Assembly (NCBI GenBank): GCA_016288635.1
Contig: JAEEKZ010000047.1
Location: 1 to 56,927 of the forward strand
DNA from: Bacillales bacterium
GTDB taxonomy: Bacteria; Bacillota_I; Bacilli_A; RF39; UBA660
Length of the DNA: 56,927 bases
Direction: 5' to 3'
Shown in pieces: positions 1 through 7,577 of the stretch (its first letter is position 1; each line of letters begins with the position of its first letter). The position numbers were made by a program, and so were the translations under genes. The notes beneath the pieces were generated by a model. It did no database searches and was not told the DNA's origin. It was given only the letters and a program-made list of their open reading frames with translations.

Positions 1-225
1 CAAATTCCACCCATTCAAGTAATACTTATTAACCATTTTGTTTTTAGAAAGCGTTTTATTTACTTCCTTAGTCAAAATATTAGTACTTTTACCATGAATA
101 ATACATACTACTTTCTTTTTCATCAAATAATTATCTTTAATAAATCCATTAACCAATGACTCCACCATTGAACTTACTTCACCATGCAAATCCAATCTTG
201 GAGTTGTACTCGTAACTATAACCAT
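1..225 (-). CDS. Small stand-alone Smr/MutS2-C domain protein (3' end runs off the window)
   Basis: Not in the ORF track. Manual translation MVIVTSTTPRLDLHGEVSSMVESLVNGFIKDNYLMKKKVVCIIHGKSTNIL...NGWNL has the Smr LDLHG and IIHGK motifs. Confidence 0.85.
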   Translation of the reverse strand, partial: MVIVTSTTPRLDLHGEVSSMVESLVNGFIKDNYLMKKKVVCIIHGKSTNILTKEVNKTLSKNKMVNKYYLNGWNL

Positions 226-227
226 TA

Positions 228-1385
228 CTATTGAGTTGGTGTATTATTAATTGTTGGTTGATTTCCTTGAACTGCTGTTACAGGAGGTGGATTAGTTGAT
301 GATGTTGGAGCAGCTGGCGTTGGAGCCGGTGCTGGTGCAGCTGGTGCAGCTGGTTGAGTTTGTTCAACCGCTTGTGCTGGTGCAGCAGGCTGTGTTGGAA
401 CTGCTGGTTGAGCAGGAGCCTGAGTCGTTGGAGCAGGTTGAGCCCCAGCTGCAGGTTTATCATTTGAAACTGCAACAGATCCTCCAAGTTTTTGAGTTAA
501 CGCTGTCATAACACTATTTAATGGTGGTATTGAATCGTGGCTACCTATTTTTTCAGTACTTAAACCACCCGCTATATTAGCAACTTGAATACTTTTTGGC
601 ATATCATAATTAACTGCTAGCGAATAAACAAATGCCCCAGCAAATATATCTTTTGCAGATGTTGTATCAATTGCTTTAGCATTTATACCTGTTGTAACAC
701 GAATTTGTCCATCAGCAGCAAATAAAGCTCCCCCATCCGCTAAAGTTATAATGAAATTAGTTCTATAATATTTTTCTACTAATATGTTAAATATTCCAGC
801 TAAAGTAGTTGGGCTTTGTAGATTAACTTGTTTTCCAGATATCTTTTCAGCCACTTCTTTAGATGCAATTACATATTTAGCATATTTACATAAATCGGCA
901 GTTTCAGCATTATATTCATCCGCAACAAGAACAGTAATTTTATCAGCAAATCTATTAAAAGCTGTCATTGCAGCATGATATTCTTTAGAGCTTGCTACTA
1001 CTATATCTGGACTTAGTGCCCATTCTTCTTTTCTAATTCTTGCGGTTGATTCAGATGTATCATACAATATTTTTCCACCAGTAGATTTATTAACAATAGA
1101 AACACGCATAGATGTTGGCTTATCAAAACTTGTATCCAAGTATTCAGTTTTAACACCAACTGATTCTAATTCTTTTCTAATAAAATTTCCATAATCATCT
1201 GATCCTACTATGGAAGAAATATAAGTTTCAATCCCCCATGTAGCAAGTAAATAAGAGATGGTTGGCGCCAAACCAGCACTGCCATCAACCTTATCCGTTA
1301 CAGAATATTTACTATTTTCTTTTGGAAATTCATCAGCTGGAAATGTAAATTCAAATGATGAAACTCCAATACATAACACCTTCAT
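228..1385 (-). CDS. PfkB/ribokinase-family protein with altered anion-hole motif and Pro/Ala/Gln-rich C-terminal tail
   Basis: VGSDDYG N-terminal PfkB motif; DTTSAKDIFAGAF in place of DTxGAGDxF; ANIAGG; last ~80 aa low complexity. Confidence 0.8.
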   Translation of the reverse strand: MKVLCIGVSSFEFTFPADEFPKENSKYSVTDKVDGSAGLAPTISYLLATWGIETYISSIVGSDDYGNFIRKELESVGVKTEYLDTSFDKPTSMRVSIVNKSTGGKILYDTSESTARIRKEEWALSPDIVVASSKEYHAAMTAFNRFADKITVLVADEYNAETADLCKYAKYVIASKEVAEKISGKQVNLQSPTTLAGIFNILVEKYYRTNFIITLADGGALFAADGQIRVTTGINAKAIDTTSAKDIFAGAFVYSLAVNYDMPKSIQVANIAGGLSTEKIGSHDSIPPLNSVMTALTQKLGGSVAVSNDKPAAGAQPAPTTQAPAQPAVPTQPAAPAQAVEQTQPAAPAAPAPAPTPAAPTSSTNPPPVTAVQGNQPTINNTPTQ

Positions 1386-1463
1386 ACAAACACCTCTTTA
1401 TTGTAACTTTATTATAATATATTTTTATTTAAATATCTATCATTTTAAAAAAAGAATATTAAA

Positions 1464-2890
<1,427 letters not shown>

Positions 2891-2900
2891 TCACAAAGAA

Positions 2901-2929
2901 ATTATAACATTTAAAAGTGGACAAAACAA
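2901..2929 (-). promoter_or_regulatory. Sigma-A promoter of tgt
   Basis: Minus strand TTGTTT-17 bp-TATAAT with TG extension. Confidence 0.6.
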
Positions 2930-2946
2930 CTTTATTATGCTATTAT
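2918..2946 (+). promoter_or_regulatory. Sigma-A promoter divergent from tgt, driving a putative sRNA
   Basis: TGGACA (2918-2923)-17 bp-TATTAT (2941-2946) with TG extended -10. Confidence 0.6.
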
Positions 2947-2947
2947 T

Positions 2948-3041
2948 AGCTTGCCGGGAAGCAATTCCGTCAGGCAAGATGCGAGCTATATTTATTATAG
3001 TTTTGTAGCATGAGGGCAACGATATTGCCCTCACTTTTTTT
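2948..3041 (+). ncRNA. Putative ~90-nt structured small RNA of unknown family
   Basis: GC-rich island in AT-rich spacer. Stem CTTGCC/GGCAAG enclosing GGAA-GCAA-TTCC (GNRA loop); second stem ATGC-GAGCTATA/TATAGTTT-GCAT; upstream promoter; intrinsic terminator. Confidence 0.6.
3011..3041 (+). terminator. Intrinsic terminator ending the putative sRNA
   Basis: TGAGGGCAA-cgata-TTGCCCTCA followed by C and T7 on the plus strand. Confidence 0.8.
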
Positions 3042-3063
3042 GCAAAAAAATAATAAGTATATT

Positions 3064-4044
3064 TTACTTATTACTTATAGATTCAAAATATTCATTAATT
3101 ATATTTAAGTACTCTTCCCTATTATTAGCATGACATAATTTAACCTTTGTCTCTTTAGCATTAGGAAGCCCTTTTAAATAATACATAAGCATACTTCTAA
3201 GTTCTAATGTTGCTTCAACCTGTGATTTATCGCTATATAAATAATCCATATGCTGAACCATCATATTATGAACGTCCTCAATTGAATGTGATGATGGTTT
3301 TTTACCATCTAAATATTCTACTGTTTCTTTAATTAACCACGGATTACCAAGTATTCCCCTACCAATCATTACCGAAGTACATCCTGTTTCATCAATCATT
3401 CTTTTAGCATCTTGATATGTTACTATATCACCATTTCCAATTACTGGAATACTAACATTATCCACAACTTCTTTAATAATACCCCAATCGGCCTTACCGG
3501 AATAGCCTTGTGATCTAGTTCTAGCGTGAATAGCTATAGCACTAGCTCCATTCTTTTCAATTATTTTAGCTACCTCTACAGCATTAATACTTTTTTCATC
3601 CCATCCACTTCTTATTTTAACTGTAACAGGACAACTAACACTTTTTACAACAGCTTTAACTATTTTACCAATCTTTTCTGGATCCTTTAATAAAGCTGAA
3701 CCAGCTTGTGCTCTAAGAGCAACTTTGGGAACCGGACAGCCCATATTAATATCAATAATATCAGGATGCATGTTTTCTTCAACTAGCTTAGCTGCTTTTA
3801 CAAAATCATCTACATCCGAACCAAATATTTGTTGAGAAATTGGCCTTTCCATCTCATCCATTTTTAGCAAATCAAAAGTTTTCTTACTACCATATACTAA
3901 AGCTTTATCAGAAACCATTTCAGCTACAACTAAAGCAGCACCCATTTCCTTACATATCTTACGATAAGAAGTATTAGTTACTCCAGCCATTGGAGCAACA
4001 ACAACTTGGTTTTTTAGTTTAACATTACCAATTTTCCATTCCAT
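3064..4044 (-). CDS. dusB: tRNA-dihydrouridine synthase (DusB/NifR3 family)
   Basis: APMAGVT, DINMGCP, VTVKIRSGW, IHARTR, IGNGDI, VMIGRG. Confidence 0.95.
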   Translation of the reverse strand: MEWKIGNVKLKNQVVVAPMAGVTNTSYRKICKEMGAALVVAEMVSDKALVYGSKKTFDLLKMDEMERPISQQIFGSDVDDFVKAAKLVEENMHPDIIDINMGCPVPKVALRAQAGSALLKDPEKIGKIVKAVVKSVSCPVTVKIRSGWDEKSINAVEVAKIIEKNGASAIAIHARTRSQGYSGKADWGIIKEVVDNVSIPVIGNGDIVTYQDAKRMIDETGCTSVMIGRGILGNPWLIKETVEYLDGKKPSSHSIEDVHNMMVQHMDYLYSDKSQVEATLELRSMLMYYLKGLPNAKETKVKLCHANNREEYLNIINEYFESISNK

Positions 4045-4081
4045 CTAGTTCACCCTCAAACTTCCTTTATATTATCAAAAT

Positions 4082-4109
4082 AAAAAAAGAATATCAAATA
4101 ATATTCTTT
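4082..4109 (-). terminator. Intrinsic terminator after pduL
   Basis: Minus strand AAAGAATAT-loop-ATATTCTTT plus T run. Confidence 0.6.
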
Positions 4110-4668
4110 AATATTCTAAATCTATTATATCTCCAGAATTAAGTGCAAAAGCTGCAGCTTCATCTGTATCAATATGTGTTTCAAAGAAACCATCATCACT
4201 TACTTTAAACACAGCATTTAATGTTCCTCCTTTTATACCAGGAACTTTTAATGTACATGGCTGTTTATCCTTAATTCCGAGTTCAGCTGCTTCTTTTGTA
4301 TTCATATGAACATGTCTATGAGCAATAATACATCCTTCAATAGTAATTTCTGCTTTTGGTGTAACTAAAGTGATTTTTTCACTATTAGCAACATCTCCAC
4401 TATCTCTAACTGGTGGATTTAAGCCAAATTTTCTAGCATCCGTTTTAGATATTTCAATTTGATTATATTTTCTAAATGGTCCTAATATTCTAACATTAGG
4501 TATTTCTGTCTTTTCTGTTTTCAAAGTTAATGTTTGATTACTAGCAAATTGACCAATTTGATTTAAATCGTTCTTCTTAGTTAATTCCTCATCAAATAAT
4601 AACTTATATGTTTCTTCTGTTAAATGAACATGTCTATTACTAACCCCAACTGATACTTTTGTTTCCAT
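4108..4668 (-). CDS. pduL: PduL-family phosphate acyltransferase
   Basis: VSNRHVHL, GQFA, VRILGP, QIEIS, PVRDSGD, RHVHM, HIDTDEA. Confidence 0.92.
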   Translation of the reverse strand: METKVSVGVSNRHVHLTEETYKLLFDEELTKKNDLNQIGQFASNQTLTLKTEKTEIPNVRILGPFRKYNQIEISKTDARKFGLNPPVRDSGDVANSEKITLVTPKAEITIEGCIIAHRHVHMNTKEAAELGIKDKQPCTLKVPGIKGGTLNAVFKVSDDGFFETHIDTDEAAAFALNSGDIIDLEY

Positions 4669-4679
4669 TCTCTACTCCT

Positions 4680-5300
4680 TTAATTATTTATACTTAAATT
4701 CTTTATATCAACAAATTCTTTACCTTTATATGTAATTTCATATATATTACATAATTGCCCTGTATTATCTAATATAATTTTATCATTTTGAGTTAAAACT
4801 AAACTCTCATCTAAATTATAACCCACCTCAATATAATTAATTAAATAAGCTAAAATACATCTTTTAGGCATAAATACAGCAACCTGATTATAACCATCTT
4901 CTAATACTTCATCAATAAATGCCGTGACTCTTTTACTACACTCATTTAATGACTCTCCCTTTTCAAGTTTAAAATCAAAATTCCTTTCTTGGAAATAGCT
5001 TAGCATCTTGATACTTTTACCCTCTAGATTACCTATTTTACAATCATATATTTTTTTATTAACATTTATAAGTAAATCTTTTTCATAAGCTAAGTTCTTA
5101 GCTAACTCAATTGATCCAAAACTCATATCGCTATATATTGCCTCAATATTATCAAATTCTTCCATCTTAGCAAGTTTTTTAGATACCATATCTCCCTTTG
5201 GATTAAGTGTTCTAAACTTCTTCTTTATTTCAATATCGGTTTCATTAGTAAAAACGATATTATTACTTAATTCTGTACTTGCAATTAAAAATATTTTCAT
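4680..5300 (-). CDS. Degenerate histidine-phosphatase (PGM-like) fold protein
   Basis: MKIFLI start, IYS, KIG, GESLNE pattern of the family; the catalytic RHG and second His are absent. Confidence 0.6.
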   Translation of the reverse strand: MKIFLIASTELSNNIVFTNETDIEIKKKFRTLNPKGDMVSKKLAKMEEFDNIEAIYSDMSFGSIELAKNLAYEKDLLINVNKKIYDCKIGNLEGKSIKMLSYFQERNFDFKLEKGESLNECSKRVTAFIDEVLEDGYNQVAVFMPKRCILAYLINYIEVGYNLDESLVLTQNDKIILDNTGQLCNIYEITYKGKEFVDIKNLSINN

Positions 5301-5800
5301 TTTACTAAACCTCCAATTATACCAAACGAAATAATATACATTATGATACTAGCTAGCACTAATCCTAAAGCAATAGATAAGAAAGCTTTCTTTTTATCCA
5401 TATCTAGGACTGACGCAATTAAAGCTCCAGTCCAAGCCCCAGTAACAGGAAGAGGAATAGCAACAAATATTGCTAAACCTATATATTGTAGTCTTTCAAT
5501 TGAGTCTTTTCTTTTATCAGCTTTTTTTAAACACCATTCAACGACTTTAGACATAAATTTTCTTTTCTTTAACCAGTCAAATAATGGCATTATGAAAGCT
5601 AAAATAAATGGTATAGGTAATAAATTACCTAAATAGCAAATTATAATACTTGGTATTGGTTTTAAGCCGAGTAATGATGCTGCAATTAAGCCGCCTCTTA
5701 ATTCAAGAATAGGCATCATTGAAATAATAAATGTAATTACATACCTGTTTTTAATAAAAGCTAGTACACCAATTAACCATTTAGCTAACTTTTCTGCCAT
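5297..5800 (-). CDS. Small multidrug-export-like membrane protein (COG2426 type)
   Basis: SMMPILELRGG and FVAIPLPVTGAWTG motifs; several TM helices. Confidence 0.88.
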   Translation of the reverse strand: MAEKLAKWLIGVLAFIKNRYVITFIISMMPILELRGGLIAASLLGLKPIPSIIICYLGNLLPIPFILAFIMPLFDWLKKRKFMSKVVEWCLKKADKRKDSIERLQYIGLAIFVAIPLPVTGAWTGALIASVLDMDKKKAFLSIALGLVLASIIMYIISFGIIGGLVK

Positions 5801-5801
5801 A

Positions 5802-6887
5802 TTATTTATTATCCTTTCCGGAATGAGTTACCAACAAATCAATATCTACATTATTAATGTTATCAAATTTCTTGGTTATTTTGTCGCTAGTAATTTGTAA
5901 TTCATCAATGGATGCATTAACACTCTTAACATTTTTAGCTAACTTATCCCAACGTTCTTTATATCTTGAGAATTCAACACTTAATTTATTTAATTCATCA
6001 TGAATAACTTGCGTATATTTATCTCTTTCCATATTCTTTAAAATCATGCTTATAATAGATAATGTACTAATCAATGTAGTTGGACCCGTAATCCACACCT
6101 TTTTATTATACGCATAAGTAAGTAATTCTGTATGATACGCATTAATTTCTGCGAATATTGCCTCAGCTGGCAAAAACATTATAGCTTCTTCTGTCGTTTC
6201 TCCTGGAACAATATATTTAGATGATATTGCATCAATATGTTTCTTAACATCAGAAACAAAAGCTTTTTCATATATAAGTCTTTCTTCTCTAGATCTACTC
6301 TTATCAGTCATCTTCTGATAACTCTCAAGTGGAAATTTTGAATCTATTGATATTGTTCCAAGAGGAGCTGGTGCATATAATAACGCATCAACTATATAGC
6401 CATTTTTAAATTTATGCTGTGTTTCATATATTCCAGATGATTTAGCTCCAAATGCATTTTGTAAGATATACTCTAGATTTACTTCCCCAAAAGTACCTCT
6501 AGTCTTTTTATCAGTTAATACACTTTGCAAAGAAACTATCTCAGTAGATAATCCATCAATCTTCTTTTGCGCTTCATCAATCTTAGTAAGTCTTTCTAAT
6601 ACATTAGCAAAAGTTTTATTTGTTTTTTCAAAACTCTTATCTAATCTATCGTTTACTTTTTCATTTATCGCAAGAAGATTTCTCTCAATTTTATCATTCA
6701 TCTTTTCAAAATCGTTATGCATATTTTTACTAAAATCATACTTAAAATTACCAATTTCTTTATTGATATTAGCTTCAAAATGTCCTAATCTTTCGATAAG
6801 TTCAATATTCTTGTTTCTTCTAAATATGGATATTATAAGTAATATTATTACTACTACAAGTAATCCAATTATTATATAATCTAACAT
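5802..6887 (-). CDS. rmuC: DNA recombination protein RmuC
   Basis: N-terminal TM plus coiled coil, KTRGTFGE, IDSKFP, AIMFLPAE, GPTTL; start at the ATG after the AGAGGT RBS. Confidence 0.93.
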   Translation of the reverse strand: MLDYIIIGLLVVVIILLIISIFRRNKNIELIERLGHFEANINKEIGNFKYDFSKNMHNDFEKMNDKIERNLLAINEKVNDRLDKSFEKTNKTFANVLERLTKIDEAQKKIDGLSTEIVSLQSVLTDKKTRGTFGEVNLEYILQNAFGAKSSGIYETQHKFKNGYIVDALLYAPAPLGTISIDSKFPLESYQKMTDKSRSREERLIYEKAFVSDVKKHIDAISSKYIVPGETTEEAIMFLPAEAIFAEINAYHTELLTYAYNKKVWITGPTTLISTLSIISMILKNMERDKYTQVIHDELNKLSVEFSRYKERWDKLAKNVKSVNASIDELQITSDKITKKFDNINNVDIDLLVTHSGKDNK

Positions 6888-6956
6888 TTTATTACCTCTA
6901 AATAAGTATACCATAAATAAGTACTATTAGACTAAAAAACTGTCTATTAAGACAGT

Positions 6957-7577
6957 TTATTTTGAAAGATTATGAGCTTTATTGAATAGTTTGTTATAAA
7001 TATCAAATTCTTCAAGCTTTTCATTAATGTTTTTATTAATATTTTTTTCTAACTTAGCAGTAGCCTTACAATAACCGGTTGTAAGAATAACTCTTATTGC
7101 ATCTATTCCCAAAGTAGGAATAACTGATTTTTTAACAAAGCCGATTTTTTGTAAATCTTTTGAATCTAATTCTCCAAGAGCTTTACGATATGCTCCTTCT
7201 TGCTTACGTAATTCTTTAGAATCTAAATCATCTAATATTGCCAAGTATTTAAAAACAGTTCTTTTATAATCAATTCTAACGATTCTCTTTTTATTACTAA
7301 TTGATGATAAATACTTTTCTAACTCGCATCTAATAGGTAAGTGATAAGAATATCCACCTTGTTTAAATACGGATATAATTATTTCACTAGTCTTGTTAGT
7401 AGCTTGATCGATTTGAGCAATATTTCTAATAGTTCTCAAACTATTTAATTCAGATTCGTATTTACATAATAATGCAACATCTTTTTTTAGCAACGCTAAA
7501 TCTTTGTCTTTTTTAATATTTCTTTTTGTAGCATTTATATCATTTAATACACTTTTTACAGTTCTTCTCTCGCTCAC
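6957..7577 (-). CDS. Hypothetical basic, helical protein
   Basis: 206-aa ORF with AGAGGTG RBS, GTG start and its own terminator; no motif recognised. Confidence 0.7.
   Translation of the reverse strand: MSERRTVKSVLNDINATKRNIKKDKDLALLKKDVALLCKYESELNSLRTIRNIAQIDQATNKTSEIIISVFKQGGYSYHLPIRCELEKYLSSISNKKRIVRIDYKRTVFKYLAILDDLDSKELRKQEGAYRKALGELDSKDLQKIGFVKKSVIPTLGIDAIRVILTTGYCKATAKLEKNINKNINEKLEEFDIYNKLFNKAHNLSK

Follow-up and report, generated by a model that had tools for sequence, protein, structure and literature searches.

In the window (the whole stretch of 56,927 nt analyzed here, with 29% G+C), the gene tgt for queuine tRNA-ribosyltransferase (positions 1769–2884, minus strand; Pfam PF01702, E-value 1e-161) and the gene dus for tRNA-dihydrouridine synthase (3064–4044, minus strand; PF01207, E-value 1e-89) are separated by a spacer of 179 nt (2885–3063), which holds a candidate small RNA (sRNA) on the plus strand. 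An earlier note on this DNA had set such an RNA in an otherwise minus-strand region, and all long open reading frames (ORFs) in 1–7000 do lie on the minus strand; GC skew is negative over the whole window. The source genome, hereafter G000, comprises 1.14 Mb, is 89.5% complete, and has a G+C content of 29%. The best 88-nt segment of the spacer has a G+C content of 0.455 and ranks 23rd among the 402 spacers of the genome; such a raised G+C content is typical for structured RNAs of AT-rich genomes. On the other side of tgt, a 102-aa ORF (1464–1772, minus strand) overlaps the tgt stop codon by 4 nt and has no Pfam match at E-value 0.001; from the usual tgt–yajC gene order, we would presume YajC to be encoded here.

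The plus-strand promoter that the note had placed at 2918 is found by a consensus scan as a sigma-70-type site (2918–2946) with 10 of 12 matches, comprising the −35 box TGGACA (2918–2923), a 17-nt spacer, and the −10 box TATTAT (2941–2946), the latter extended by TG (TGcTATTAT, 2938–2946). It is the best of seven promoter-like sites in 2600–3400; shuffled sequences yield 4.6 such sites on average, hence, the promoter scan taken alone is weak evidence. From the promoter geometry we infer a transcription start at G2953, 7 nt after the −10 box, which is the first base of the core of the 5′ hairpin P1. On the minus strand, a putative tgt promoter (2901–2929) is seen by eye, with the −35 box TTGTTT (2929–2924) and the extended −10 box TGtTATAAT (2909–2901); it is not called by the scan, as it matches three of six positions in the −35 box. 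The −35 boxes of the two promoters abut (2918–2923 on the plus strand, 2924–2929 on the minus strand), and promoter interference between the sRNA and tgt is possible. In this arrangement (2882–2909, minus strand), the transcript from the putative tgt promoter would have a 5′ leader of only about 10 nt ahead of the ATG, containing no more than a partial Shine–Dalgarno sequence (GUGAU).

The 89 nt that begin at the predicted start fold at −29.1 kcal/mol (z-score −3.9; none of 200 shuffles as good) and form all three consecutive hairpins that had been described, that is, P1, P2, and a terminator. The longer RNA of 124 nt that the note had considered folds at −36.6 kcal/mol (z-score −4.1; again 0/200 shuffles as good). 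The fold of these 124 nt, in which promoter bases pair with GUAGCAU and P1 takes another register, was rejected: the promoter bases precede the predicted start, and G001, a related genome introduced below, breaks this register.

Hairpin P1 (2953–2975) has a lower stem of 3 bp and, above an internal loop, a stem of 4 bp capped by the GCAA tetraloop (2961–2964), i.e., GCC / G / GGAA-GCAA-UUCC / GUCA / GGC, the internal loop being formed by G2956 opposite G2969–A2972 (1×4); both the GNRA cap and the G/GUCA internal loop are thus as first reported, in the fold from the predicted start. P2 (2980–3007) is a long hairpin with a U-rich loop (2991–2995) and a base formed by UGCG (2980–2983) with UGUA (3004–3007); it has no U tract. 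The bulged state claimed for this UGUA holds in the single-sequence fold of G000 only, where an alternative AUGC/GCAU base of P2 leaves it unpaired, and not in the comparative structure, where UGUA/UGCA and UGCR form the base of P2 by pairing with each other, as they do when two of the homologues are folded. The terminator (3011–3041) combines a stem-loop (3011–3033) of nine pairs, five of them G–C, with a following C and U7. It is the sole terminator-like site called in the region and lies on the plus strand, as proposed; shuffled sequences yield 0.4 on average.

On the opposite strand, dus apparently ends in an AT-only hairpin (3072–3052, overlapping the stop codon) followed by T7, both within 3044–3072 of the minus strand; this hairpin is not called by the terminator scan due to too few G–C pairs. 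It and the sRNA terminator stand back to back, 2 nt apart, and the homologous locus L079 has the same AT-only hairpin.

A BLAST search with the spacer against 60 relatives yields one clear match, in G001, the only other species of the genus (E-value 2.6e-11, 86% identity across the promoter and P1); short, weaker matches (E-values of 1.5e-5 and up, e.g., in G003, G015, G034, and G013) cover AT-rich flanks of the promoter or the terminator. Of 41 genomes, G000 among them, 38 yielded a tgt gene; the regions upstream of tgt were read at the locus of G000 and at 29 loci of relatives, and among these 29 the element is present only in G001. The exact 19-nt word of P1 retrieved 16 metagenome stretches, in two of which, L079 and L080 (G+C content 0.30 and 0.32), the element is present as a whole. 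The others, 14 in number, are G+C-rich, have flanks unrelated to those of the element, and were discarded as matching by chance; the same applies to 17 of the 18 matches of an 18-mer scan of species genomes, the remaining one being G001. The identity of TGT to that of G000 is 98% for L079, 82% for G001, and 79% for L080, with near-identical values from tblastn; hence, the four homologues represent three lineages, that of L080 having only a metagenome contig as its source.

A covariance model built from the four RNAs (R1; 86 positions, 27 pairs) was run with Infernal's stricter filters on three sets of genomes, drawn at the levels of family (150 genera), order (86), and class (109), each set comprising 151 genomes with G000 among them. 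True matches across these samples are G000 and G001 only. Three weak matches were rejected: G073 (27.2 bits) and G143 (25.5 bits) lie within coding sequence and lack P1, and G209 (26.7 bits) covers a gene's 3′ end with its terminator. Among the genomes searched, the candidate sRNA family occurs in a single genus-level clade only.

The sRNA is divergent from tgt at all four loci. At the opposite flank, convergent dus is found in G000 and L079 only (tblastn); in G001 and L080 this place is taken by a homologous gene for a 240-aa protein with a hydrophobic translation, which may be a CvpA-like membrane protein. In these two loci the upstream gene has its own terminator, located 12–20 nt past that of the sRNA; due to this separate termination, the complement of the element was rejected as a minus-strand leader of tgt.

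Matching promoter geometry is called by the scan in G001 and L079; the L080 promoter falls below the scan threshold and is seen by eye, with 8 of 12 matches plus TG. The distance from the end of the −10 box to the GCC of P1 is 6 nt in all four sequences, and the pairs below GCC/GGC (2950–2952 with 2976–2978) are broken in L079 and L080; both the broken pairs and the fixed distance agree with transcription beginning at the core's first G. The extended −10 box TGnTATAAT also stands ahead of tgt in G001 and L080. The two divergent −10 boxes are 34 nt apart here and 44 nt apart in G001, which makes the geometry of the divergent promoters variable. In G001 and L080, GGUGA is present where the tgt leader of G000 has GUGAU. 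Terminators are called by the scan in L079 and L080; that of G001 is not called and is seen by folding.

Folded singly, the four RNAs form the same three hairpins, with z-scores of −3.9, −3.4, −2.5, and −5.5, and no fold contains a single-stranded stretch longer than 4–5 nt. The P2 loops are UUUAU, UUA, UUUAU, and UUUUU.

For the comparative structure, the four RNAs were aligned with MAFFT (alignment A2, 95 columns), which replaced a two-sequence MAFFT alignment with misaligned P2. A hand-written structure placed on A2 pairs in 93.5% of cells, compared to 81.4% in column shuffles, a control that ignores kinship, and to 30–49% when the partners are slid by 1–3 columns; four of the unpaired cells come from the terminator of G001, which is one column out of register. 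Changes on both sides are seen in 10 of 28 pairs, namely, one in the lower stem of P1, four in P2, and five in the terminator, although with four sequences from three close lineages the power to detect covariation is low. RNAalifold independently arrives at what is in essence the same three-hairpin structure; of its 27 pairs, 9 are doubly changed and kept. P2, with ten pairs, is paired in 97% of cells, and the doubly changed pairs of the terminator are five of eight. The lower stem of P1 has two unpaired cells beside its one double change. The apical stem of P1 is invariant and thus shows no covariation; since it never varies, conservation at the DNA level is conceivable, and P1 could be conserved as DNA instead of RNA.

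The degree of conservation differs strongly along the element. Between G000 and G001, the 23-nt core of P1 is identical at 22 of 23 positions, the one difference being A to G in the internal loop; P2 with its linker is identical at 13 of 33 positions, and the terminator at 5 of 24. Four-fold degenerate sites of tgt in the same pair of genomes are 39% identical (n = 103), i.e., near saturation. The core is also identical at 23 of 23 positions in L079 and L080, but by construction, as both were retrieved by an exact match to 19 of its bases; hence, the unbiased comparison of P1 is that of G000 with G001 only, and retrieval by exact match misses homologues with an altered P1.

A scan of the whole window with Rfam 15 (4227 models) gives no match at gathering thresholds, and no family, including preQ1-I/II/III, c-di-GMP, 6S, and SRP, reaches its gathering score, in agreement with the note. 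Sub-threshold matches in 2600–3400 (E-value up to 10) are based on the terminator: L20_leader with 19.8 bits (gathering score 58.7) and SSRC38 with 15.8 (80). In the homologous loci the best ones are rsmX with 23.9 and 18.9 bits (56) and rimP with 28.7 (47). For the preQ1 riboswitch families there is no cmscan match even at E-value 10, either for the copy in the window or for the homologues. ARAGORN finds no tRNA or tmRNA genes in the window. Identity with the SRP RNA (RF00169) was rejected, since the SRP RNA of this genome is encoded elsewhere (contig C43, 1769–1848; 52.6 bits) and is unrelated in sequence; that of G001 is on contig C4 (53.6 bits), and both score over the cut-off. In a full-text literature search, the listings and abstract openings returned contain no mention of an RNA element beside tgt.

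Taken together, these observations support the core claim of the note, an unannotated structured small RNA: there is no match to Rfam, tRNA, or SRP RNA, and the fold, the promoter, and the terminator are kept in relatives. The element recurs with promoter and terminator in three other sequences and covaries outside the terminator, that is, the same-strand promoter and terminator and the compensatory change (in four sequences) that mark an independent sRNA gene are found. A real sRNA gene beside tgt is, in our view, likely. With somewhat less confidence, we favor an independently transcribed non-coding RNA gene of about 88 nt (approximately 2953–3040, plus strand), the first member seen of a genus-restricted family; its start, end, and strand are predictions.

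In this reading, a housekeeping-type promoter with an extended −10 box would fire away from tgt; the transcript would begin at the foot of the 5′ hairpin P1, run through P2, and stop at the intrinsic terminator; the convergent upstream gene would have its terminator back to back with this one. The RNA would be nearly fully folded, with constraint acting on the whole P1 hairpin, its two strands as well as its tetraloop and internal loop. Due to this constraint and to the lack of a long single strand, we tentatively suggest that the RNA may act through the shape of P1, which a protein or another macromolecular partner would recognize, rather than through a long antisense seed. The sRNA would act without Hfq or CsrA: Hfq was not found in G000 or G001, nor was CsrA (PF02599), the two genomes being 89.5% and 96% complete. 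The link with tgt would most simply be a shared divergent promoter region, and coupling of the two promoters is possible.

The closest counterparts are intergenic, Rho-independently terminated sRNAs of Firmicutes, which likewise lie between protein-coding genes, have a sigma-A-type promoter of their own and an intrinsic terminator, measure 70–90 nt with stacked hairpins, and occur in a narrow phylogenetic range. Different from these, the RNA beside tgt matches no curated family, has no evident seed, and its conservation is centered on a complete 5′ hairpin. Similarity to RsmX of the Csr/Rsm clan (RF02144, CL00106) is seen as weak full-length cmscan matches in L080 (23.9 bits, E-value 0.3) and G001 (18.9 bits, E-value 4.3), far under the gathering score of 56, and the G000 copy has no such match. 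Like the Csr/Rsm sponges, the RNA has multiple hairpins and a terminator; however, its loops are GCAA and U-rich, without a repeated loop GGA (the one conserved GGA is in the stem of P1), and the genomes G000 and G001, as noted above, yielded no CsrA.

The main rival to P1 as a binding module is a trans-acting riboregulator, in which either P1, with its conserved bases, or P2, at its UGCR/YGYA base, would open and pair with one or several mRNAs. The anatomy of a 5′ hairpin, a middle hairpin, and a terminator is common among base-pairing sRNAs, and pairing sRNAs work without Hfq in many Firmicutes, consistent with Hfq not being found here. However, the four folds offer no single-stranded stretch beyond the 4–5 nt given above, and the sequence of the P2 loop varies. 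Moreover, the 23-nt core of P1 has no match elsewhere in the genome on either strand with up to six mismatches; a BLAST search of the genome with the element finds nothing in P1; and a crude duplex scan against the tgt mRNA reveals no site shared by the four sequences, only long, loop-ridden duplexes at differing places. We consider base pairing unlikely, though more probable than the other alternatives.

P1 conserved as DNA leads to another alternative, that there is no functional RNA and P1 is an operator, bound by a regulator of tgt and centered about 70 bp ahead of the presumed tgt start, with the downstream hairpins acting only as convergent terminators. Here, the dyad GGAA-N4-TTCC of P1, the lack of covariation in the apical stem, and the location of P1 within the tgt upstream region at all four loci would fit. 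The outer arms, however, are asymmetric (one vs. four unpaired bases), unlike a dimer site; the invariant central GCAA is that of a GNRA loop; a correctly spaced promoter faces P1 at a fixed 6 nt in all four loci (in L080 by eye); and P2, which has no U tract, keeps its pairing through double changes. The genome contains no second copy of the P1 site (the dyad GGAA-N4-TTCC as such occurs at 22 sites), and the eight neighboring proteins scanned include no regulator. An operator is therefore quite improbable.

The position beside tgt might hint at a role in queuosine insertion, with the RNA as a decoy or substrate of TGT carrying GUN-like triplets, or as a stand-alone preQ1/queuine sensor tuning tgt by way of the promoter region that both share. 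The neighborhood is consistent with this: tgt is adjacent at all four loci even though the other flank has changed, and in this clade it is uncoupled from queA, which is close to tgt in 9 of the 29 relatives' loci. The distances are up to 70 nt upstream in these nine and 0.4–1.3 kb upstream in three more, and in one locus queA follows tgt; in G000 it is on another contig than tgt (C13, 3800–4807), and in G001 it is 15 kb from tgt (C1, 314611–315618). There is also precedent for a non-tRNA substrate, as TGT reportedly acts on the virF mRNA. Yet the three lineages are close kin, which makes shared synteny weak evidence, no preQ1 riboswitch family matches, and no plus-strand gene lies downstream to be controlled.

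The specific idea of the note, that the unpaired GUCA and UGUA mimic GUN anticodons, gains no support from the comparison. TGT needs U33-G34-U35 in a 7-nt loop, and its minimal substrates are anticodon stem-loops of GUN tRNAs; the RNA beside tgt likewise contains GUC and GUA, but GUCA and UGUA both lie outside hairpin loops, the base before GUC is C and not U, and neither of the two motifs is conserved, GUCA being GUCG in G001 and UGUA being paired in the comparative structure and replaced by UGCA in L080. None of the four folded RNAs has UGU in a hairpin loop. The preQ1 riboswitches (classes I–III) are also small structured RNAs near queuosine genes, but the present RNA is not a 5′ leader, has its terminator opposite a convergent gene, and shows no alternative antiterminator pairing.

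The tgt gene of L079 (1588–2703, plus strand; 89.4% nucleotide identity to the gene in the window) has TAA at codon 42, where AAG is found here. This in-frame stop may reflect a true pseudogene or an assembly error; the neighboring sRNA and dus are intact; in the sRNA, the changes within P2 are compensated, and the terminator stem has been rebuilt. The stop, if real, would mean that the RNA is kept independently of tgt, which counts against the queuosine link. As a whole, that link is very unlikely. Equally remote is its variant with a stand-alone RNA in which the invariant GNRA hairpin, together with the internal loop, would be the binding site for TGT or preQ1/queuine, and which would set the queuosine level of tRNA; control would then go through the abutting divergent promoters or through titration, in a clade with tgt split from queA. 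If true, this would be the first case of a tRNA-modification enzyme regulated by an RNA in trans.

The 9-codon hydrophobic ORF MRAIFIIVL proposed in the note does sit at 2979–3008 of the plus strand, but that the transcript is an mRNA for this tiny peptide is hardly credible: G000 and L079 share the hydrophobic frame of nine codons with the same UAG end, while the frames of G001 (19 codons) and L080 (26, from UUG) traverse the terminator stem and encode unrelated peptides, a clear ribosome-binding site is lacking, the base of P2 occludes the start codon, and conservation is strongest ahead of the ORF, in P1, so that the ORF is judged not to be the conserved feature.

Genes for sRNAs that diverge from a functionally linked gene are well known, e.g., oxyS–oxyR, gcvB–gcvA, and micF–ompC. 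The element is similar to these in its back-to-back divergent promoters and in the arrangement being kept across relatives; in those systems, however, the neighbor is the regulator of the sRNA or belongs to the same regulon, whereas here it is a tRNA-modification enzyme. The fixed place of the element against the tgt promoter offers a concrete and testable tie to queuosine modification. At present, however, the element is a new, ordinary candidate for a lineage-specific sRNA, one of many, seen in only three lineages. To our knowledge, hardly any non-coding RNAs have been described for uncultured small-genome gut-type Bacilli; if transcribed, the element would add a well-defined sRNA family to these AT-rich organisms. 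It also offers a clean test case, a 23-nt hairpin frozen while the remaining RNA drifts with compensation, and the frozen P1 points to a specific partner in organisms where Hfq and CsrA were not found.

Further along the window, a gene for a PduL-type phosphate propanoyltransferase (PTAC) adjoins a gene of the histidine phosphatase family (4108–5300, minus strand), in a genome of 1.1 Mb.
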